DNA from: Candidatus Kaiserbacteria bacterium
GTDB lineage: Bacteria; Patescibacteriota; Minisyncoccia; Phycocordibacterales; UBA918
Reading direction: 5' to 3'
DNA: 49,618 nt
Assembly (NCBI GenBank): GCA_020428795.1
Contig: JAGQME010000004.1
Location: 1-49,618, forward strand
The notes under the pieces were generated by a model that was not told where the DNA came from, made no database searches, and worked only from the letters and a program-made list of their open reading frames with translations. This document shows, in pieces, positions 7,640 through 48,569 of the stretch; the stretch's first letter is position 1, and each line of letters opens with the position of its first letter. The translations under genes and the position numbers were made by a program.

Positions 7640-8859
7640 AATTCTGATTCGGCTAATAGTACCACTACAATGGTTTCGTTTTGAAATTCAGATTTAGCTA
7701 ACTCACTTGTATCAGAAGTACCATTTGCGGGAGCTTGTTCAGCGTAGGTATAAAAACCAGCCAGAGGCACATCCTTTCCAATCACATCTTGAATAGCTTT
7801 TATTTCAGCACTAGACTCTTCACTCGAGGCAAATAGGGATTTACGAGCGTGATTGCTAAATACGAAAGCCACCTGTGGGGTTTGTTTAAGGGCCTCAAGC
7901 GCTGATTTGGCCGCTTCTTTGGCCGCTTCAACAGCGTCTTCTTTTGAGCCAACCATCATTCTAACGTTTTCGCCCTCTTTAATCTCGCCGCCAAAAATAA
8001 TCGAACCATCCAAACCGGCTGTAAAAGGGGCCCTCAAGAGAGTGTCACCACCCTGACGGCTTTTTAGACCAAGTGGATACGACTGAGCTATGGAGCCTAA
8101 TTTTTTATCCTTAAGACTGGACACTTCATCAACTCCCAAATACTGCTCATAAAACGATATGGCCGGTTTGTTATTTATTTCTATTATTTTACTACCCTCT
8201 GACTTAGTTACTTGTCTAGGGGCACCAACCGGACTCCAACCATGTTTTATTCCCACCGAAAAATGCAGAGCGCCGGAGAGTCCAACGGCCACTACTGAGT
8301 TTGTTAAGACCTGTTCTTGAAAGAATTGTTTGGATTCAGTAAAAGCACCGTTGTCACTAGCTGATCCACCAATCACTGGAAAATTTTCACCGAGGTTGTT
8401 GGTCAAACCAGCGATTATACTTGAACCATTACCATTTAAGCCGTCAGGAAAAATCATTAGTAACTTACTATCTTGTGGTGAACTACCCATGATAGCCAGT
8501 GAAGCGTCCTGACCAGCCTTATATGAATCAGCCTGCAAATCATCAGCGTAGGTAGCTGTAAACTGAATGGTATCTGAATATAAAAACAAGACAACGACTG
8601 ACTGCCTTTTGGACGGTCCATCATTTGATATTTCACCAGAAGTGGTTGTTCCAACAATAATAGAATTCTCCCCGACCACCGACCTTATACCTGACAACAC
8701 TTGTTCGTGCTTATAGTCAATCGAAGCAAAGACATAGACGATTTGTGGTAAAGCTCCCGCTACCTTAGCTTGTAAAGCAGACAAAGCTTGGCCGGCCACT
8801 TCAACACCAACCACCATATCATCTGTACCATAATTAACCGCTGAGGTAGCTATAAACAT
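7636..8859 (-). CDS. FIST-domain sensory protein (FIST_N + FIST_C)
   Basis: 407 aa. FIST_N-like VYVFASIDYKHEQVLSGIRSVVGENSIIVGTTTSGEI. FIST_C-like YPLGL...LDGSIIFGGEIKEGENV and GFYTYAEQ. ATGA overlap (7636..7639) with the kinase gene. Confidence 0.8.
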   Translation of the reverse strand: MFIATSAVNYGTDDMVVGVEVAGQALSALQAKVAGALPQIVYVFASIDYKHEQVLSGIRSVVGENSIIVGTTTSGEISNDGPSKRQSVVVLFLYSDTIQFTATYADDLQADSYKAGQDASLAIMGSSPQDSKLLMIFPDGLNGNGSSIIAGLTNNLGENFPVIGGSASDNGAFTESKQFFQEQVLTNSVVAVGLSGALHFSVGIKHGWSPVGAPRQVTKSEGSKIIEINNKPAISFYEQYLGVDEVSSLKDKKLGSIAQSYPLGLKSRQGGDTLLRAPFTAGLDGSIIFGGEIKEGENVRMMVGSKEDAVEAAKEAAKSALEALKQTPQVAFVFSNHARKSLFASSEESSAEIKAIQDVIGKDVPLAGFYTYAEQAPANGTSDTSELAKSEFQNETIVVVLLAESEL

Positions 8860-13114: not shown

Positions 13115-13480
13115 CTACTGTAGATGTCGATTGATAACCGCCAACATTTCAGAGAAATCAGTCTGTGATTTATTGAAAAAATCATTAGCTCCCGAAGAAA
13201 TTACTTTTTGAATAATTTCTGGCGCATCGTTATTTGAAAATATTATAAACGGTACCTGGGCCAAAGCTTGGTCCTTTTTCATTTCTGCCATTACCTCAAG
13301 CCCGTACATATCCGGTAAATCCAAATCCATCAAGACCAAGTCTGGTTTATTTGAGGAAACTTTCGATAAGGCGTCTTCGCCGGATGAAGCGGAAATAATT
13401 TCAAATGCCTCATTTTGCAGTCTAGTTGCCGTCACATCTCGTATATAAACATCGTCCTCTACAAGCATTATTTTTTTCAT
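13115..13480 (-). CDS. Single-domain CheY-like response regulator
   Basis: 121 aa. KIMLVEDD...DLVLMDLDLPDMYG. No output domain. Confidence 0.9.
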   Translation of the reverse strand: MKKIMLVEDDVYIRDVTATRLQNEAFEIISASSGEDALSKVSSNKPDLVLMDLDLPDMYGLEVMAEMKKDQALAQVPFIIFSNNDAPEIIQKVISSGANDFFNKSQTDFSEMLAVINRHLQ

Positions 13481-37953: not shown

Positions 37954-39084
37954 TTAGAATGATGGTGTCGCTACGTAAGTTAGGACGGCAGAGTAGTCAT
38001 CACCAGCTTCTTGCAAAGAGGTAATTTCAATCTGATATCCAACTCGAGCTGCACCGATCCCAGCAGTTGTACTGTCTGCTGGCCCATTGTGACCCATAAC
38101 TAGACGTGGGGTGGTGCTAGCAGCGATAAATCTAGCTGAGAGGAAATCTGTTCCTCGGCCAGGAATCGCCAAGTCGTCCGATGTAACTCCCCAGTGTCCA
38201 TAGGTATCTGGAAGACCAAGGGTGCCAGATGGAGCTGACCATAGCGCCGGCACATCTGTGTCTGAGCCATCAGCGAAGCCGTTAATATCGGCTCCAGTTG
38301 ATGATTGAAGGGCACCATCGAGCTGTACTGTTACAGAGTAGCCATTACTTGCGTTAGTGCCTACCTGCAAATCTTGTGCAGTGGTGGTGGCCGAACCATC
38401 GGATAATTCACCAAATGGAATAGTCGTGGCGGTTGTTGCTCCAGTGGTAGTTGCCCCATTGACAACCTGACCACCAGCGACACCAGCTACTGAAAAAGTA
38501 AAAATGGTGTCAACAGCAGCCGTAACCGTAACCTCGTCTACAATAGCAACTATTGTAGATCCGGAATCATTCGGTCCGCTGGTAATATCAATATCATACG
38601 TACCCACGGCTGGGTTAGTAATTTTATTGGTACCACCAACTACGATGGTTACTTCTTCATCTGCCTCTATCTGCCCTCCGTCATCTTGACACAAAGTCAG
38701 TGTCAAAACATTTCCGGCAAATACAGCACTCATATCTTCACCTCCAGTACAGTCGGCAGCAGGCACACCTGCTGTACCAAACGAACCGTAGGTAGAGCCA
38801 CTTACATTTACATCAGTCTCATCGACCGAACCCATTGTAAAGGCTGGATCAAAGGTGACGGTAATTGTAGAGGTACTCCCATAAGCGCCATCAGCTATGA
38901 AGTAGATCGTGTGGTCCGCTTCTGTTGACGGAGCTGAGGTTGATAGAGTATCGCTAACTTCTGTGATGTTAGCAGCTCCAGCAAGCTGGAGGTACGGTAG
39001 TCCTAGTGACCAAAAAATGATCGCCAATCCTACAACCATTGCAATAGTTTTGAGCGTTCCAACGGTGTTTTCCGTTTTGAACAT
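37954..39084 (-). CDS. Secreted Thr/Gly/Ala-rich protein with WxL-like C-terminal domain; candidate major surface subunit
   Basis: 376 aa. Signal/TM LKTIAMVVGLAIIFWSLGL. C-terminal domain ...TIFTFSV...IPFGEL...VGTNASNGYSVTVQL...GHWGV...VGYQIEITSLQEAGDDYSAVLTYVATPSF. Has its own terminator and an 850-nt upstream non-coding region. Confidence 0.8.
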   Translation of the reverse strand: MFKTENTVGTLKTIAMVVGLAIIFWSLGLPYLQLAGAANITEVSDTLSTSAPSTEADHTIYFIADGAYGSTSTITVTFDPAFTMGSVDETDVNVSGSTYGSFGTAGVPAADCTGGEDMSAVFAGNVLTLTLCQDDGGQIEADEEVTIVVGGTNKITNPAVGTYDIDITSGPNDSGSTIVAIVDEVTVTAAVDTIFTFSVAGVAGGQVVNGATTTGATTATTIPFGELSDGSATTTAQDLQVGTNASNGYSVTVQLDGALQSSTGADINGFADGSDTDVPALWSAPSGTLGLPDTYGHWGVTSDDLAIPGRGTDFLSARFIAASTTPRLVMGHNGPADSTTAGIGAARVGYQIEITSLQEAGDDYSAVLTYVATPSF

Positions 39085-39469
39085 AGCTCTACGTTGTATT
39101 TTAGCCTATCAACTTGTTGTCTTGAGTTGTATGGCTCAATTAACAAGATTTGGTGTGTTGTGGTGAAACAGACACCGAAACTTAACAAAGGTCTCCACAC
39201 CTTCTATAAGCTATTTGATAAGCATATTTGTTACATAACACCCGGCTGAAGTGCCCGTCGCATACGCGACTACAACGCAGTATGATTAAAAAATACCTCT
39301 GCAACAAATACTATTACATTGTAACTTGTGTTTATTTTTTATAATAAAAACTTATACACATTTTTAGATTTTTAGACATAAACTACACAAACCAAGCTAC
39401 ATAAACGTAAGAAAAACACTGATTCTACCTTGTACAAAAAATATAAAACGAGGTCTGGATCAAAACACC

Positions 39470-39507
39470 AAAAAATAAAACTTCGGTTAACCGAAGTTTT
39501 ATTTTTT
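39470..39507. terminator. Perfect palindromic hairpin with bidirectional terminator geometry
   Basis: aaaaaataaaacttcgg-ttaa-ccgaagttttatttttt. 17-bp arms that include an A-run and a T-run. Confidence 0.7.
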
Positions 39508-39541
39508 GGTGTTTGGTAGTGTATAAATTTAGCTACGTGGG

Positions 39542-39567
39542 TATTTACGTATTTAGTTACGTAAATA
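39542..39567. promoter_or_regulatory. Operator-like inverted repeat
   Basis: tatttacgta-tttagt-tacgtaaata: 10-bp perfect arms with a 6-bp spacer. Each arm contains the palindrome tacgta. Confidence 0.25.
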
Positions 39568-39658
39568 TTTTATATTTCTCTATACTCTTTTCTATTTATA
39601 TAAATAATTTGAACACCAGATACATAGAGGGGTTGTTGGAATTAAAATATAAATCCCT

Positions 39659-39704
39659 AAAAACAAATAGTATGATATTACATAATATCATACTATTTGT
39701 TTTT
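39659..39704. terminator. 22-bp perfect inverted repeat with bidirectional terminator geometry
   Basis: aaaaacaaatagtatgatatta-ca-taatatcatactatttgttttt. Confidence 0.7.
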
Positions 39705-39717
39705 AGGTCCCATATCG

Positions 39718-39801
39718 AAGGTTTGACTGCGAGTTCCTAATTTTCTCAAGGGGAGAAAAAATTAGGAACAAAATTCGCAATATGCCCTGCGGGCATTTGC
39801 T
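39718..39801. repeat. Structured intergenic repeat A, copy 1 (84 bp identical core)
   Basis: Identical to 39851..39934. Contains a long hairpin gttcctaattttctc / gagaaaaaattaggaac, extended by tgcga/tcgca, and a GC hairpin atgccc-tgc-gggcat. Degenerate similarity extends about 9 bp further 5' (from 39709). Confidence 0.9.
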
Positions 39802-39850
39802 GCGGAGTATAAAGTAAAAACAGGCTCTGTCTGGTTTATCACCTATACCA

Positions 39851-39934
39851 AAGGTTTGACTGCGAGTTCCTAATTTTCTCAAGGGGAGAAAAAATTAGGA
39901 ACAAAATTCGCAATATGCCCTGCGGGCATTTGCT
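39851..39934. repeat. Structured intergenic repeat A, copy 2
   Basis: 84/84 identical to copy 1, with a 133-bp period. It ends 4 nt from the stop codon (39939..39941) of the dockerin gene. Confidence 0.9.
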
Positions 39935-39938
39935 CATT

Positions 39939-41057
39939 TTACCCGGTCCAGTTGAATAGTAGGATGGAGAAATCTTCAATCCCAACTCGACCGTTACCAT
40001 TGATATCAGCTGGAGGGTCAGAGTCGCCACCATTCGTTTGCCACCAGAAAATCAAAATAGAAAAGTCTGTTAGATTAACCTTACCATCTCGACTTAAATC
40101 AGACGGGGTACTAGCCTGCCCTTCTACTCCCACAAATAACTGCAAGGTGGTACTGAAATTCGTCTCGGTTCTTAGTGGTGGTGTACCAGATAAATATCTA
40201 GCCTTGACCGGGTAGGCCTTAGCCGATAGTGATCCGGTGTTATAGGTCAAAGACCATTTTCCGTTTTCATCAGCAGTAGCAGTCTGCACAATCCGACTGC
40301 CATCAATATGTACCTCAACCGTTACCCCTGGTAAGGCTTGACCGGAAAAAGTAACCACTGCCCCCGGATCAACCTGAGTCGAACTGAGTCTAAGAGTTGG
40401 TGGTAATAAGATACTGGCAATATTAGTTATAGCACCCTGAGTAACATCAAAAGTGTTATTTAGGGTTATAGAACGTGTGTTTTGATCGTCAGTCGACCAA
40501 AAACCTAAAGACACCGTCCCAGGTGAAGCATCGGTAGTAAAATTAAAACTTCCCTGACTATTGGCTCGTACACTACCCACCTGTTTGCCATCGAGCAAAA
40601 TATTAATTGTCCGATTAGGATAACCTCGTCCTGTTACGCTTATTTGCGTATCACCCAAATCTGTATTTGATCCTCCTCTTGACCCGCCACCACCGGAAGA
40701 ACCACCGCCTCCTGAACCAGCCGGTTCAATGGTACAAGTAGAACTGCAAAAGTCACCATCATCATTGTTCCCGTCATCGCATTCCTCAGCATACTGAGTT
40801 TGTAAAATACTGTCGCCACAATAAGGACCGAACAAGCACTGACTATTACACTGACGACCGGCAATCGTTGTACTGTACTGACCCGTCTCTCCAGGCACAT
40901 CACATTCTTCACCAGGGTTCACAATCAAGTCACCACAGATACTAAGATCAATGGTAGTAGTGGCCAGATAAGTTTGAGCCACTGATGTATTTGGTATAAA
41001 CCAAAAACTGATACTGACTAAAAGAAAATAATAAGAGAGTGGTGACTTCATAGACAA
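39939..41057 (-). CDS. Secreted protein: two Cys-rich (CGDxxxxxxEECDDGN-type) repeats, Gly-rich linker, Ig-like domains, C-terminal dockerin
   Basis: 372 aa, TTG start with ATG two codons later. CGDLIVNPGEECDVPG and CGDSILQTQYAEECDDGNNDDGDFCSSTC. GSGGGGSSGGGGSRGGS linker. Dockerin pair SDLSRDGKVNLTDFSILIFWW and ADINGNGRVGIEDFSILLFNW. Confidence 0.8.
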   Translation of the reverse strand: MSMKSPLSYYFLLVSISFWFIPNTSVAQTYLATTTIDLSICGDLIVNPGEECDVPGETGQYSTTIAGRQCNSQCLFGPYCGDSILQTQYAEECDDGNNDDGDFCSSTCTIEPAGSGGGGSSGGGGSRGGSNTDLGDTQISVTGRGYPNRTINILLDGKQVGSVRANSQGSFNFTTDASPGTVSLGFWSTDDQNTRSITLNNTFDVTQGAITNIASILLPPTLRLSSTQVDPGAVVTFSGQALPGVTVEVHIDGSRIVQTATADENGKWSLTYNTGSLSAKAYPVKARYLSGTPPLRTETNFSTTLQLFVGVEGQASTPSDLSRDGKVNLTDFSILIFWWQTNGGDSDPPADINGNGRVGIEDFSILLFNWTG

Positions 41058-42039: not shown

Positions 42040-42080
42040 AGGTAATAAAGCAAGAACCACTGCTGGATAACAGTGGTTCT
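42040..42080 (-). terminator. Likely intrinsic terminator of the 627-aa gene
   Basis: 10-bp perfect stem agaaccactg / cagtggttct (42053..42080) with an 8-nt loop. The minus-sense tail is TGCTTTATTACCTTT. Confidence 0.6.
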
Positions 42081-44132: not shown

Positions 44133-45341
44133 TTATTCGTACCTTATAGCATCCAACGGATTAAGAGTAGCCGCTCGTCTAGCTGGAAAAATACCTGTTA
44201 GGTACCCAACTGTGGCTGAGAACAGAGCGATAAAAACCAAAAACCACATTGGGAAGGAAAACAGATTGACTGACTGACCACCAAATTGACTAGCGGCTAG
44301 GTTCAAAAGAAGATTAACCACCAACCCGAGAGTCACACCCATCAAAATACCTGACAGTCCACCAAGGAAACCGACGATGATTGACTCAGACACAAACAAC
44401 CACTTAATGTCAGCCGGAGCGGCCCCAATGGTACGCATGATCCCGATCTCCTTGGTTCTTTCAAGCAAAGTCACCGTCATGGTGTTAAACATTCCAATTG
44501 CCGACACTAATAAAGCAATTCCACCAAAAGTGGCTAAGACCACCTGTACTCCTTGGAATATCTTAGAAGCCTGTTCCACTGTTTTCGAGAGGGCTGTGAC
44601 TCGATACCCGTCTTCGATCAAAGCGTCTTCCACGGTGTTTAAAAATTCGTTACTCTCCACCCTAACTTGAACCCGCTCAAACTCCTCAATACCAAGATGT
44701 GAACGCAACTCTGGCAACATCATCAGAGCATTAAGTACCCCCTCTTCTTTGGTTATACCCTTTACCACATACTCTTTATCAATCACCACTTCGTTAATAG
44801 TATCGGTTCCATCGTTGGCTGGCACCAAAATCCTAAATTTAACCTTTTCGCCTATAAATGAATCAAGATCTTCTATTCCAAACAACTTTAAAACCGCTGG
44901 CGAAAGCATGACGCTATTTTGATCGCCAGCATCTTCATCAGTAAAAACATCACCAGCTTGAGCGGTCACACCAGCGTATCTTAGGTAAGGTGGTTCGGCT
45001 CCTTGCACAAATACGTTACCAGTCAATCCTTTGTAAGTAATGAGGGCCGGAAATCTAGCCAACGGAGCGGCATCGAGCACGTTATCCATTTCTTTGAATT
45101 TTGTCACCGTCTCTGGTGTTAGACGTAAATTTTGAGCTCCGGTGGACGAGACGCCGAGTGAAAGCAAGGTCTCACCGAACACAATCTGTTCAAGAATGAT
45201 TTGCTGAAGACCAAAACCCAGACCCACCAAAACCACCACCGCTCCGGTACCCACCCCCATACCTAAGATGGTAAGCCAAGTACGTAACGGATTGGTCTTA
45301 AAAGCTCTAGTTGAAAGTTGGGCTAAATCTCGTAATCGCAT
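44133..45341 (-). CDS. MacB/FtsX-type ABC transporter permease
   Basis: 402 aa. TM1 WLTILGMGVGTGAVVVLVGLGFGL, a large extracytoplasmic loop, then the FtsX motif IGIMRTIGAAPADIKWLFVSESIIVGFLGGLSGILMG and two more TM helices. Confidence 0.9.
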   Translation of the reverse strand: MRLRDLAQLSTRAFKTNPLRTWLTILGMGVGTGAVVVLVGLGFGLQQIILEQIVFGETLLSLGVSSTGAQNLRLTPETVTKFKEMDNVLDAAPLARFPALITYKGLTGNVFVQGAEPPYLRYAGVTAQAGDVFTDEDAGDQNSVMLSPAVLKLFGIEDLDSFIGEKVKFRILVPANDGTDTINEVVIDKEYVVKGITKEEGVLNALMMLPELRSHLGIEEFERVQVRVESNEFLNTVEDALIEDGYRVTALSKTVEQASKIFQGVQVVLATFGGIALLVSAIGMFNTMTVTLLERTKEIGIMRTIGAAPADIKWLFVSESIIVGFLGGLSGILMGVTLGLVVNLLLNLAASQFGGQSVNLFSFPMWFLVFIALFSATVGYLTGIFPARRAATLNPLDAIRYE

Positions 45342-45398: not shown

Positions 45399-46721
45399 CT
45401 AACTCTTATAACTAACATCAACCCCTAAGGCAATTATCTTTTCAAAATACCTAGTCAAATCATCTGCCTCCTTTTCTGACAAAGCCAAACCACCAGCGGT
45501 GACACCCTTCATCATACCGGCATTTAATTCATCTTCACCACTAACACCAACTACTCGATCAGCAATCAACTCCGTGAGATTTTGATCTTGCTTCTTAGAC
45601 AACTTTAATCTATGCGCATGTAACAAATGATCCTTAAGGCGCTCGGCTAGTTTATGTTGACCGAAGAAAGCATGGTCGTTGTTTTGTTGTTTACGAAAAC
45701 GACGAATATCGTCAGCGTTACCGATTATTTTGGCCGAAGTATGTACCATTCTCCTAGCATCTTTCTCCGGCAACCCAACTCCACCCCGTTCATACGGCAT
45801 AATTAGAGCCTTCATAACCGCCACTTTATCTACCTTACCAGCAATAAAATGACTGATGATTGACTCCATTCTTACCAACTGATCGTACGTATAGTCCTGA
45901 GTTAATAGGTTGACCAGACTTTTTACCCTTAAAGTATCAACCGAATCATACGGAAAGAGTCTGGCCAATTGTTCTAACTCAGTAACAATGGTCTCCCCTT
46001 CTTTGACCGGTTTTATTTGTTTTCTTTGCGGATTCACAACCTCACGTACAATCGCACCATCTTTTAGGTAATACACACGGTGAGCGTAGCTTAAGTGAGC
46101 AGCGTTGTGTGACACCATGATAATAGTCCGTTTATCAAAAGTATTGATTTCATCAATCTTATCCATTACTTGTTGAGTGGACACGGAGTCTAGGTTTCCG
46201 GTTGGCTCGTCAGCGAGCAATATTTTAGGATCATTGACCATCGACCGAGACACTGACACACGTTGTTGCTGACCACCGGAAAGCATCGGAGTAATTTTAT
46301 GAGACACCATACCCACTCCAAACCGATCGAGCAACGATTGCGCCCTTCTTTCTCTGGTTGGTTTATCGACGTTAGCAAAAATCATTGGCAAAGCCACGTT
46401 ATCAAGCACCGTCAAAGATGGGATTAGGTTAAATTGCTGAAAGATAATACCCATCACATAGCGCTGGAAGTAAACACGATCCTCAATGCGAAGAGCATAA
46501 ATATCCTCACCACCAATACGCATCGTTCCACCACCCGGCGGTAGCGAACCCTGTATGGCATACATAAGAGTGGATTTTCCTGAACCAGAGGCTCCGAAGA
46601 GAATTATGTACTCACCTTCGTAAATATCGGTACTAGCATTAGACAGAGCCCTAAACTCGTTTGACTTACCTTTGTTATATATAATGTCAAGGTTGCGACA
46701 GATAATTAGTGGTTTGGCCAT
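45399..46721 (-). CDS. ABC transporter ATP-binding protein (MacB/LolD/FtsE-like) with unassigned ~210-aa C-terminal extension
   Basis: Start placed at ATG 46721 (MAKPLIICRNLDIIY); the track TTG is at 46769. GASGSGKSTLMYAIQG, LSGGQQQRVSVSRSM and ILLADEPTGNLD. Residues after ...YYLKDGAIVREV (nt 45402..46037) match no motif I recognise. Confidence 0.9.
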   Translation of the reverse strand: MAKPLIICRNLDIIYNKGKSNEFRALSNASTDIYEGEYIILFGASGSGKSTLMYAIQGSLPPGGGTMRIGGEDIYALRIEDRVYFQRYVMGIIFQQFNLIPSLTVLDNVALPMIFANVDKPTRERRAQSLLDRFGVGMVSHKITPMLSGGQQQRVSVSRSMVNDPKILLADEPTGNLDSVSTQQVMDKIDEINTFDKRTIIMVSHNAAHLSYAHRVYYLKDGAIVREVVNPQRKQIKPVKEGETIVTELEQLARLFPYDSVDTLRVKSLVNLLTQDYTYDQLVRMESIISHFIAGKVDKVAVMKALIMPYERGGVGLPEKDARRMVHTSAKIIGNADDIRRFRKQQNNDHAFFGQHKLAERLKDHLLHAHRLKLSKKQDQNLTELIADRVVGVSGEDELNAGMMKGVTAGGLALSEKEADDLTRYFEKIIALGVDVSYKS

Positions 46722-46811
46722 AGAAAAATTCGGCGAAAAAATCTCGTTTCTATAATTAGAACATACCAACCCTCTTTACCTTAGGGGTAGTATCCACACA
46801 TATCATCGAGA

Positions 46812-46910
46812 ATAAATAATTAACACTGGTCCCCTCCTCGCCCTGCTTCGGCTGAGGCCTCAGATCGGGCGTCCTCGTTCTCACTCGGAACGGATAAAAC
46901 TTCCCGAAGG
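46812..46910. repeat. Structured GC-rich intergenic repeat B, copy 1 (99 bp)
   Basis: 98/99 identical to 46946..47044. Much more GC-rich than its surroundings. Nested and pseudoknotted complementarities: CGCCC/GGGCG, CUUCGG/CCGAAG, CGUUC/GAACG and CUG/CAG. Confidence 0.9.
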
Positions 46911-46945
46911 ATTAACTACCAGATTTAAAACTAAGCAGCACAAGG

Positions 46946-47044
46946 ATAAATAATTAACATTGGTCCCCTCCTCGCCCTGCTTCGGCTGAGGCCTCAGATC
47001 GGGCGTCCTCGTTCTCACTCGGAACGGATAAAACTTCCCGAAGG
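46946..47044. repeat. Structured GC-rich intergenic repeat B, copy 2
   Basis: 134-bp period. The single difference is c46825 versus t46959. It begins 7 nt from the stop codon (47052..47054) of the Fn3 gene. Confidence 0.9.
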
Positions 47045-47051
47045 GGAGGTT

Positions 47052-48569
47052 TTATCCCGTGATGTTTTTGACCCAGCCGAAGGTACTTTCAAAGTTTTCT
47101 AGAATCAAATCAATGATGTTTTTTTCTTGAATCGGAGTAAACAACACAAAGTTTTCTGACTGAACAGCGTTTCCAGCTTCGTCCGTACAATTAAGCCAAA
47201 ACTGATAGACCGTAGCTGGAGCAAAATCAACCACTACCTGAACGTGTCGTTCAGTGTAATTAATTTGCTCATCCTCAACCACAATCGGATCAACTCCCCC
47301 GGCCACCCCTTCTCGATAAGTCATCGAACAATAAGCCGGTTCGTCGGTACGCCACTCTACAATCGTTTGAATCCTTGATTCACCACCCGGGAAGATAGTG
47401 GACTCATTCGTTACGTTACTAATAATCGGCGGAGCGGTATCGCGAGAAGTAATAAAAGTAATTGGCTGACTCCTTACCCTGTCACCACCAGAATTTTCTG
47501 AAATAGCGAAAGCAACGTATCTGGTACCTAAAGTAAGATCAGCTATACGCATCTGATGAGTAGTAGCTAGTGTGGGCCGACCGATAGAATTTTGAACACC
47601 TGTAGTCAAATCTTGGTACTCAATCAAAGCCTTGGCTGGTACGGTTGTATCCCAAGCAATCGTGGCTGAATCTTCTTCTACCTTTACAATTCGTAGGTTT
47701 CTAATGTCCGGTAAAGAAGCCTTCGTCTTAAAAGTAAAGTTTCGACTCTCACCTTCCACTCCCACCGAATCGGTTGAAATAACCTTAAAACTATAATCAG
47801 TGTAAGACTCTAATCCAATCAATTGGACTTCATGTTCTTGAGTTAGACCAGCCGTACTTGATTGTGAAAACTCATAATTTGTACCATCAAAGGTACTGGT
47901 TTTTGAAAATAACACCGTAGAATCAGCCTCACGATCAGTGGACCACTTAACCAAAGCGGTGGTAGTCTCCGGTATCACAGTTGGTGGACCGATGATGGTT
48001 AGATCGTCAGTAATACCTTGAATAGCCTGGATGGTGACATCAAGGATTTCTTGCAATTGTGTGACCTCGGTTATTTCTTGAATTTGCTCGATTATTTCTT
48101 CGGTGGTGGTATCACTTTGGTTTCCACCTTGCCCAGGAGCTTGGCCACTACCCTCTCCCGTACCCTGACTTTCAGACTGTCCTTCGCCCTGACCCTGTCC
48201 GGTATCTTGAGTAGTTTCGTTATCAGTCTGGATTTTATAATCAGCCGAAATACCTTGGTTACCCTCTTCATCGGCCGAGACAACTCGGAAATAATACTGC
48301 CGACCAGGTTCTAAATCGTCCAGTGTCACACTGTGAGACTGGCGATTAGCTTCCGGTATACGAACAATACCGTAATCGGGCTTCAAACCGTAGTTAACCA
48401 AGGAATCAGCGTCTTCATCGGTCTGCCACTTAATCTCAACTTCAGTTGGAGACACGATATTTATTTCAACGTTGGATATCTCTGGCGGAGTTACATCATT
48501 CGACTGAGCGTAAGTGAGGGTAGCCACCAAGAAGAATGAGACTAATACTGAGAAAAAACTTTGCTTCAT
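47052..48569 (-). CDS. Secreted protein with four fibronectin-type-III-like domains
   Basis: 505 aa. Signal peptide. Repeated pattern PPEISNVEINIVSPTEVEIKWQTDEDADSLVNYG...LEPGRQYYFRVVSADEEGN, seen four times with variation. Q/G/E-rich linker TGQGQGEGQSESQGTGEGSGQAPGQGG. Confidence 0.8.
   Translation of the reverse strand: MKQSFFSVLVSFFLVATLTYAQSNDVTPPEISNVEINIVSPTEVEIKWQTDEDADSLVNYGLKPDYGIVRIPEANRQSHSVTLDDLEPGRQYYFRVVSADEEGNQGISADYKIQTDNETTQDTGQGQGEGQSESQGTGEGSGQAPGQGGNQSDTTTEEIIEQIQEITEVTQLQEILDVTIQAIQGITDDLTIIGPPTVIPETTTALVKWSTDREADSTVLFSKTSTFDGTNYEFSQSSTAGLTQEHEVQLIGLESYTDYSFKVISTDSVGVEGESRNFTFKTKASLPDIRNLRIVKVEEDSATIAWDTTVPAKALIEYQDLTTGVQNSIGRPTLATTHQMRIADLTLGTRYVAFAISENSGGDRVRSQPITFITSRDTAPPIISNVTNESTIFPGGESRIQTIVEWRTDEPAYCSMTYREGVAGGVDPIVVEDEQINYTERHVQVVVDFAPATVYQFWLNCTDEAGNAVQSENFVLFTPIQEKNIIDLILENFESTFGWVKNITG

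Follow-up and report, generated by a model that had tools for sequence, protein, structure and literature searches.

The question raised by this locus is the nature of two almost identical units of about 100 nucleotides (nt) which stand in series between a gene for an Fn3-domain protein and an ABC transporter operon in contig JAGQME010000004.1 (assembly GCA_020428795.1) of a Candidatus Kaiserbacteria bacterium. Positions 1 to 49,618 of this contig are referred to below as the window; coordinates are those of its plus strand, and gene sense means its minus strand. We would class the unit as a candidate for a new structured non-coding element of narrow distribution; it combines a terminator, an invariant core, a hairpin designated P3 and a recent, polymorphic duplication. 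The reading that we favour, tentatively and at less than even confidence, is that of a structured non-coding module of restricted lineage distribution, anchored at the 3′ end of the conserved Fn3 gene, read in gene sense and recognised by a factor acting in trans. The locus is composed as follows:

47052..48569, minus strand: gene for the Fn3/purple-acid-phosphatase-N domain protein of 505 amino acids, identified by its Pfam domains; its 3′ end forms the 5′ arm of P1.
47026..47057, no strand assigned: hairpin P1 of 14 base pairs (bp) with a 4-nt loop; arms 47026-47039 and 47044-47057; spans the Fn3 stop codon TAA at 47052-47054.
46943..47044, minus strand: unit copy adjoining the Fn3 stop codon, upstream in gene sense, with the AUG variant (A variant); 155.7 bits with covariance model R1.
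46998..47033, minus strand: invariant core of 36 nt, UUUUAUCCGUUCCGAGUGAGAACGAGGACG(C/G)CCGAU.
46973..47005, minus strand: interrupted hairpin P3, composed of CGCCC/GGGCG, CU/AG and GGC/GCC with a GAU bulge and a GA/GA internal loop.
46946..46972, minus strand: purine-rich AGGAGGGGA followed by an AU-rich tail; the purine part is mostly kept in the homologous contig L015 as GAGGUGGGAC.
46911..46942, minus strand: spacer S of 32 nt between the copies, not found in the one-copy allele.
46809..46910, minus strand: second unit copy, downstream in gene sense, with the GUG variant; 139.7 bits with R1; lacks the 5′ arm of P1.

The direct repeat 46809-46910 / 46943-47044 (pair R) is 102 nt long with 1 mismatch, a start-to-start distance of 134 nt and a 32-nt gap, which gives an A-B-A arrangement of 102 + 32 + 102 nt. 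The window holds long sub-patterns of the unit at no other place, the chance expectation being 0. An earlier note on this DNA had described two near-identical units, and the description is accurate: the 99-nt segments 46812-46910 and 46946-47044 are identical at 98/99 positions, and the spacing of 134 nt holds. The single substitution (plus-strand C/T at 46826/46960) does toggle a would-be start between GUG and AUG in gene sense, as had been stated, and the short open reading frames (micro-ORFs) MLIIYSR and MLIIYPCAA can be read where they were reported. The G+C-content of the units is 50–53%, compared with 35–49% per kb for the window and about 44% around the repeats.

In gene sense, positions 1–19 of the unit contain the descending arm of P1 and its U-tract, positions 12–47 the core and positions 40–72 the P3 hairpin, and the rest after position 72 consists of the purine-rich stretch and the AU-rich tail. 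The core includes a small hairpin, or inverted repeat, GUUC-N7-GAAC at 47011-47025. On the plus strand, the segment 46946..46972 appears as a CCUCC-rich stretch with a -10-like AATAAT before it. The second copy starts within the P1 loop and hence has no ascending arm.

The same locus was found in a distant lineage, in contig L015, which carries a homologous element directly after the Fn3 stop codon. L015 was retrieved with an exact 22-mer from the core, and was its only real match in JGI metagenomes. Over the last 270 coding nt of the Fn3 gene, L015 and the window are 72% identical, with 49% identity at third codon positions, and despite this level of coding identity the core is identical at 35 of its 36 positions. 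In P1 of L015, three pairs are changed on both sides, and the C.A mismatch of the window is replaced by a G-C pair. In P3, four pairs are changed on both sides, with the GAU bulge and the GA/GA internal loop unchanged. Altogether, double-sided changes affect 7 of the 28 pairs of P1 and P3, and 94.9% of cells are paired in the comparison of the window with L015. Shuffling gave a mean of 2.7 double-sided changes, with the observed number reached in 1/500 shuffles, and slid controls gave 0–1. The compensatory substitutions that the earlier note had called for are therefore present in both P1 and P3 in the two lineages compared, and this helix covariation can be regarded as real evidence of structural constraint, as given by a single pairwise comparison of sequences.

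Single-sequence minimum-energy folds give the same P3 architecture separately for the window and for L015. RNAalifold recovered P1 and P3 on the gene strand, with -36.9 kcal/mol and seven covarying pairs; on the opposite strand it reached -32.2 kcal/mol, and P3 was not recovered. P3 of L015 holds a G-U pair on the gene strand, and this pair, the conserved tandem G.A loop and the RNAalifold result would all fit the gene strand as the functional one. The stability of the fold is modest, with a z-score of -2.0 for the copy including the stop-codon hairpin. Of the helices proposed before from the letters, CGCCC/GGGCG is kept by compensatory changes in L015, and the hairpin CGUUC/GAACG falls in a stretch that is invariant between the window and L015. 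The long-range helix CUUCGG/CCGAAG, in contrast, is not supported. In L015 it forms 4/6 pairs, which 163/500 shuffles do as well, and because its columns overlap P1 and the inner P3 helix, it represents an alternative pairing and not an added pseudoknot, contrary to what had been suggested.

The unit could not be placed by eye in any known RNA family, and database comparison agrees: Rfam 15 returned nothing at gathering score for the whole window and only chance-level matches (E > 0.8) in 46600-47200. Nothing was found at gathering score in seven related loci, where permissive scans gave chance matches and hairpin-like microRNA (miRNA) matches.

The pairing of the adjacent copy with the last codons of the Fn3 gene, which had been noticed earlier, exists in the form of P1. 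Its arms, made up of the last Fn3 codons with the stop on one side and the 5′ end of the adjacent copy on the other, are 14 nt long and 93% complementary; the stop codon TAA lies within the 5′ arm, and the 14-bp helix is kept by compensatory changes in L015. The stem has a G+C-rich centre, with 6 G-C among its 14 pairs, and is preceded by an A-tract and followed by a U-tract, its tail being UUUUAUCC. A G+C-containing stem-loop with a U-tract at a gene end is what defines an intrinsic terminator at the level of sequence, and P1 is built like other strong terminators of the window, e.g., 39466-39511 and 42053-42080. On this basis P1 is, in form, a bidirectional intrinsic terminator.

In each of the window, L001 and L015, the element directly adjoins the Fn3 stop codon. 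We infer that the module is transcribed, that the gene strand is the relevant one and that a partner exists. The module would be made as a gene-sense RNA, being either the 3′ end or a read-through part of the Fn3 transcript; P1 would end or stabilise the Fn3 message, and a trans-acting partner, be it a protein or a second RNA, may recognise the invariant core together with P3.

L001 and L002, two contigs of other assemblies, match the window at 99.9% identity over 4.2 kb but contain one unit instead of two. Their sole copy has the sequence of the A variant, and the GUG copy is absent. The A variant is joined there to the flank of the second copy of the window, a junction that the window does not have, so that L001 and L002 cannot be explained simply as a collapsed form of the window allele. 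Recombination between the repeats is able to produce the one-copy allele from the two-copy one. Simple slippage is excluded as the origin of the pair, because it cannot create a 32-nt spacer; spacer S resembles the segment after the L015 element (16/21 identical, p about 0.03), and no significant similarity was detected between S and the flank after the second copy (p about 1.0). The 99% identity of the copies indicates that the duplication is recent. Two cooperating aptamers, which the idea of a tandem riboswitch implied, are argued against by this identity, by the missing 5′ arm of P1 in the second copy and by the one-copy allele in the population. The pair is polymorphic, and half of P1 is missing from its second member; the duplication therefore resembles a by-product of recombination in a very plastic spacer rather than a two-aptamer device.

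A partial second copy is also present in L015. It is 36 nt long, 92% identical, lies 142 nt downstream, starts in the P1 loop and is devoid of P3. The best sigma-70-like promoter of the L015 locus, TTGACT-18-TATATT, lies between the two copies, and L023 has a homologue of this inter-copy segment in its ABC-proximal region (p = 0.006). On account of this promoter and this homology, the unit seems to have been placed between the Fn3 terminator and the old ABC promoter region, with the duplicated material beyond the promoter. The Fn3 gene of L015 has an in-frame stop at about 905-915, and that of L026 (10001-10615) has a frameshift near its 3′ end, the sequence being otherwise conserved; these disruptions are either sequencing errors or pseudogenes.

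The distribution of the element is narrow. Covariance model R1 matched the window, L001/L002 and L015 only (about 250 kb searched), and none of the four contigs L023–L026, which are relatives of L015 obtained in a second protein search, carries the element. A 20-mer from P3 gave one chance match among GTDB species genomes, in a coding region of Flavobacteriaceae. BLAST of phage and plasmid collections gave no match to the unit, and IMG/VR contained nothing for two unit patterns, for one pattern of the structured X family described below or for the spacers of pair R and of a second tandem pair of the window (D3). Two adjacent copies in 49.6 kb and none found with the covariance model in about 200 kb of related loci do not make a dispersed repeat of the repetitive extragenic palindrome (REP) or miniature inverted-repeat transposable element (MITE) kind. 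Terminal inverted repeats and a target-site duplication were looked for and are lacking, the unit ends CCTTCGGGAAG... and ...TTAATTATTTAT not being inverted repeats.

The Fn3-ABC spacer itself varies in length from 56 nt in L019, 62 nt in L005 and 79 nt in L009 to 196 nt in L001, 234 nt in L020, 302 nt in L004, 328 nt in the window and 576 nt in L016. The longer spacers of relatives contain inserts unrelated to the unit. Inserts of L004, L016, L020 and others were considered as diverged unit homologues, and neither the covariance model nor local alignment with shuffled controls supported this. A common insert of about 220 nt with several hairpins was observed in the Fn3-ABC spacers of L004 (7513-7780) and L016 (8590-8900); it is unrelated to both the unit and the X family.

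Several observations weigh against a gene-sense module of the Fn3 3′ end. The element is absent from 11 related lineages with the same order of giant protein, Fn3, ABC and FtsX genes, and since these eleven do without it, it is dispensable for both Fn3 and ABC. Just two independent lineages carry it, for which reason the covariation amounts to one pairwise comparison. The second copy folded alone is no more stable than its shuffles (z = -0.08). The terminator scan flags P1 on the plus strand only, because the gene strand of the window has one C.A mismatch where the plus strand has a G-U pair. If termination at P1 were efficient, gene-sense transcripts of the core and P3 would be rare. Finally, the invariant 5-N7-5 inverted repeat would equally fit a DNA operator.

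A rival reading, which we consider possible and rather unlikely, is that of a plus-strand small RNA gene convergent with Fn3. A transcript of about 95 nt would start from the -10-like box in the AU-rich end, begin with the C/U-rich CCCCUCCUCGCCC, continue through the complements of P3 and P2 and stop at P1, used as a Rho-independent terminator, and the window would hold two gene copies, the first reading through into the second. Such an order of promoter, body and terminator would account for the transcription of a body lying beyond the Fn3 terminator. The sites that it needs can be pointed out: TCCACA-16-AATAAT (46793-46820) and TTAAAA-18-AATAAT (46925-46954) stand before the copies, L015 has TATAAT at the homologous position of the -10-like box, the terminator scan on the plus strand alone returns 47026-47057 and 47034-47048, followed by GTTTTATCCC, and the window P1 is fully paired there thanks to the G-U pair. 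However, hexamer matches of this kind are at about shuffle level (2 versus a mean of 1.0; 31 versus 40.8), and the first copy would have no terminator of its own. The P3 hairpin fits the plus strand poorly, as it acquires an A.C mismatch in L015, the conserved GA/GA loop becomes UC/UC and RNAalifold does not recover the helix. An anti-Shine-Dalgarno seed would also find few targets, since Shine-Dalgarno (SD) sequences are not used here.

An RNA role is dispensed with altogether if the unit is a DNA-level module, that is, a product of recombination or insertion, or a site bound by a protein, in a spacer where small inserts are especially frequent; this is unlikely in our view. The hairpins would then act as single-stranded DNA or as a cruciform, the 5-N7-5 repeat as an operator, and a 134-nt segment that integrates and is excised would lie behind the A-B-A arrangement. 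Its attraction lies in the plasticity of the locus, with the element in two non-sister lineages and missing from 11, one-copy and two-copy alleles in the same population, unrelated inserts (including dispersed members of the X family) in the spacers of other lineages and A-B-A duplications with periods of 133–148 nt that recur in window R, window D3, L015 and L016. The inverted repeat CGTTC-N7-GAACG is, moreover, invariant with its loop included, as an operator might be. Yet no second locus with the unit was found, either within the 49.6 kb of the window or in related loci totalling about 200 kb; the 20-mer and the 22-mer found nothing else real in GTDB species genomes or JGI metagenomes, respectively, and the absence of terminal inverted repeats and of a target-site duplication has been mentioned. 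Covarying helices with fixed loops and bulges take time to arise and are a better fit to long-term structural selection than to recent movement.

A bolder and improbable extension of these ideas would be a new class of cassettes of about 134 nt, each consisting of a terminator, a structured RNA and a promoter, and inserting or duplicating by recombination at terminator hairpins of conserved surface-protein genes. Both the unit and the X-family pair at 39702-39934, which is unrelated to it, could be examples, in a host belonging to an uncultured lineage with leaderless mRNAs. If true, it would explain the A-B-A periods of 133–148 nt, the promoter-like spacers, the copy-number variation between strains and a core recognised by a dedicated protein, and it would amount to an undescribed class of tiny mobile regulatory RNA modules.

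The gene-sense module at the Fn3 3′ end must also be set against the role first proposed for the pair, that of a cis-regulatory leader or tandem riboswitch of the ABC/FtsX operon. The downstream features concerned are the following:

46755..46763, minus strand: TGTTCTAAT, extended -10-like motif of the ABC gene, downstream of both copies.
45399..46723, minus strand: ABC transporter ATPase gene, identified by its Pfam domains, with start codon ATG at 46721-46723.
44133-45341, minus strand: FtsX/MacB-type permease gene, next after the ATPase gene, identified by its Pfam domains.

The element does lie upstream of the ABC gene and shows conserved unpaired nucleotides between covarying helices, as an aptamer would; in L015, the TTGACT-18-TATATT segment with its homology to the ABC-proximal region of L023 means that the partial second copy could be within an ABC leader. 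That copy, however, is just 36 nt long and has no P3, and the full element is tied to the Fn3 stop codon, 230–400 nt from the ABC start. The motif TG(T/G)TCTAAT is invariant in 7 lineages (window, L004, L005, L009, L016, L019 and L020), lies 10–17 nt from the ABC ATG in six of them and 33 nt in the window, and is probably an extended -10 promoter element. Its location downstream of both copies, together with the absence of the element from 11 lineages with the same operon, argues against a leader or riboswitch of the ABC operon. Neither a terminator nor a sequestering helix, and hence no expression platform, was found in the sequence after the second copy. With the one-copy allele and the lack of an Rfam match added, this role is very improbable.

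Genes of the window generally do not have long leaders, since TATAAT-like boxes sit 5–15 nt before many start codons, e.g., those of Fn3, 13115-13480 and 44133-45341, which also speaks against an ABC leader. This suggests that the mRNAs are mostly leaderless or have very short leaders. The rarity of SD sequences noted earlier was confirmed, as 0/32 genes of the window have an SD-like motif upstream. No paper bearing on this locus came out of a literature search on bacteria of the candidate phyla radiation (CPR), SD use and leaderless mRNAs. The AGGAGG of the unit is, in view of the missing SD-like motifs, unlikely to be a ribosome-binding site. The combination of this motif with a micro-ORF, as had been envisaged, was not upheld either: L015 has no start codon at the position in question (CAGUAU versus CAAUGU in the window), and the two peptides diverge past residue 5. 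A conserved short ORF with a usable start, as in a leader peptide or attenuator, is therefore not present. Coding frames across the unit were inspected on both strands and rejected, as they had no ATG, GTG or TTG starts or were not conserved beyond the 36-nt core.

It is also very improbable that the genome has a single unit and that the second copy arose when a mixture of strains was assembled: two other assemblies of the same population show one copy, but the sequence of the 32-nt spacer is unique, can only stem from reads that connect two units and resembles the segment after the L015 element, L015 independently has a partial second copy 142 nt downstream, and the window holds a second, unrelated pair of the same geometry.

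The module was compared with known systems. Bidirectional Rho-independent terminators offer the closest parallel to P1, with its position at the stop codon, its A-tract, G+C-rich stem and U-tract and a stem that covaries between lineages; the likeness is confined to the first 19 nt of the unit, and the remaining 80 nt, with the core and P3, have no counterpart, and the second copy holds only half of the hairpin. REP palindromes and bacterial interspersed mosaic elements (BIME) of E. coli are extragenic, stand after stop codons between co-oriented genes and stabilise the upstream message. REP elements are about 35 nt long and exist in hundreds of dispersed copies, often more than one per site and with a number that varies between strains. 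The unit likewise is structured, lies just after a stop codon between co-oriented genes and varies in copy number, but it is about 100 nt long and was found at a single locus in two lineages. It shares with small RNAs that are derived from 3′ untranslated regions (UTRs), or share a terminator with a gene, the overlap with the terminator of a coding gene and a conserved single-stranded stretch beside hairpins, and differs in being a predicted RNA.

Tandem riboswitches such as the glycine riboswitch also have two similar structured units in series upstream of an operon. In contrast to these, the copies here are 99% identical, one is incomplete, the pair is polymorphic and outside a 5′ UTR, and there is no Rfam family. 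The succession of a repeat, a unique 32–33-nt spacer and a repeat, seen twice in the window, recalls clustered regularly interspaced short palindromic repeats (CRISPR). CRISPR repeats are 23–50 nt long, whereas those found here measure 100–102 nt and number only two. No cas domains were detected among 26 scanned neighbouring proteins. Acquisition of the 32–33-nt spacers in a CRISPR-like manner was considered and abandoned, as they had no match in IMG/VR or GenBank phages.

In practice, the outcome serves mainly as a caution, since riboswitch, leader peptide and CRISPR-like array are all labels to be avoided when the pair is annotated. A functional RNA, if the module is one, would add a motif not described before, and this from an uncultured and little-studied lineage in which genes seem to have neither SD sites nor long leaders. 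The Fn3-ABC spacer would in that case be a natural experiment, as lineages differ in the small structured inserts that they carry at one site between two highly conserved genes, and copy number varies within a population.

All large reading frames of the window are on the minus strand. The order of giant protein, Fn3, ABC and FtsX genes is kept in relatives, and more than 1000 homologues of the Fn3 protein were found, in which the C-terminus hardly varies. The remaining genes encode UvrA, UvrB, tRNA-guanine transglycosylase, two-component systems and many surface proteins of the Ig, cohesin and dockerin types; because such genes fill the rest of the window, it is a cellular genome and not a phage. 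No tRNA or transfer-messenger RNA (tmRNA) gene is present in the window.

The second tandem pair of the window, D3 (39702-39801 / 39835-39934), is unrelated to the first and consists of 100-nt units that are 94% identical, with a spacing of 133 nt and a 33-nt spacer. It begins 5 nt beyond the stop codon of a Big_6/dockerin gene (39939-41057), and its spacer contains a promoter-like CAGACA-16-TATACT on the minus strand. An AT-rich spacer of 855 nt at 39084-39939 also contains very long, AU-rich perfect hairpins at 39466-39511 (stem of about 20 bp) and 39654-39709, which are called as terminators and give spurious miRNA-like Rfam matches.

Each D3 unit includes one copy of the X family, which is described by covariance model R2 as a 15-bp hairpin, CGUCY-AG-stem / stem-RGACG, with six covarying pairs and a subsequent invariant UAAAUUC. 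The family is dispersed over several loci on both strands, two of its copies have a loop insert of about 70 nt, and it has no Rfam match. The copies are:

Window, plus strand: 39725-39795 and 39858-39928, one per D3 unit.
L020: 3070-3142, 5836-5968, 10366-10403 and 12038-12171.
L016: 8457-8529.
L015: 122-194.
L024: 1608-1680.
L017: 18539-18572.

Like the unit, the X family is a small structured element found in the Fn3-ABC spacer of relatives, and in the window it forms a pair with a period of 133 nt (39702-39934). It differs from the unit in being dispersed, and no similarity in sequence or model connects the two. Where X is inserted in the Fn3-ABC spacer, it is bordered by a degenerate second version of the final 25–55 nt of the Fn3 gene, as seen in L016 (8385-8439 / 8533-8587, 55 nt, 84% identity, spacing 148 nt) and L024 (about 1555-1575 / 1690-1716). 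The start of the L016 duplicate matches the Fn3 gene end of the window better than the end of its own gene, which hints at recombination with another lineage. Spacer S was tried as a decayed Fn3 gene end of the kind seen around the X inserts of L016 and L024, and the similarity was not significant (p = 0.47); the D3 spacer compared with its gene end was likewise not significant.

The periods of the A-B-A duplications are nearly constant, at 134 nt (window R), 133 nt (window D3), 142 nt (L015, 393-570) and 148 nt (L016, 8385-8587), and the repeated parts of these four vary widely (102, 100, 36 and 55 nt, respectively). At the start of the window, between 272 and 2462, a 37-nt motif, GG.GTAGTAGTACCAATCCCGA..., is repeated seven times with spacings of 213–450 nt, and a weaker eighth copy (68% identical) is located far off, at 38444-38480. 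The motif probably corresponds to a repeated protein domain of a large surface protein that runs off the window start.

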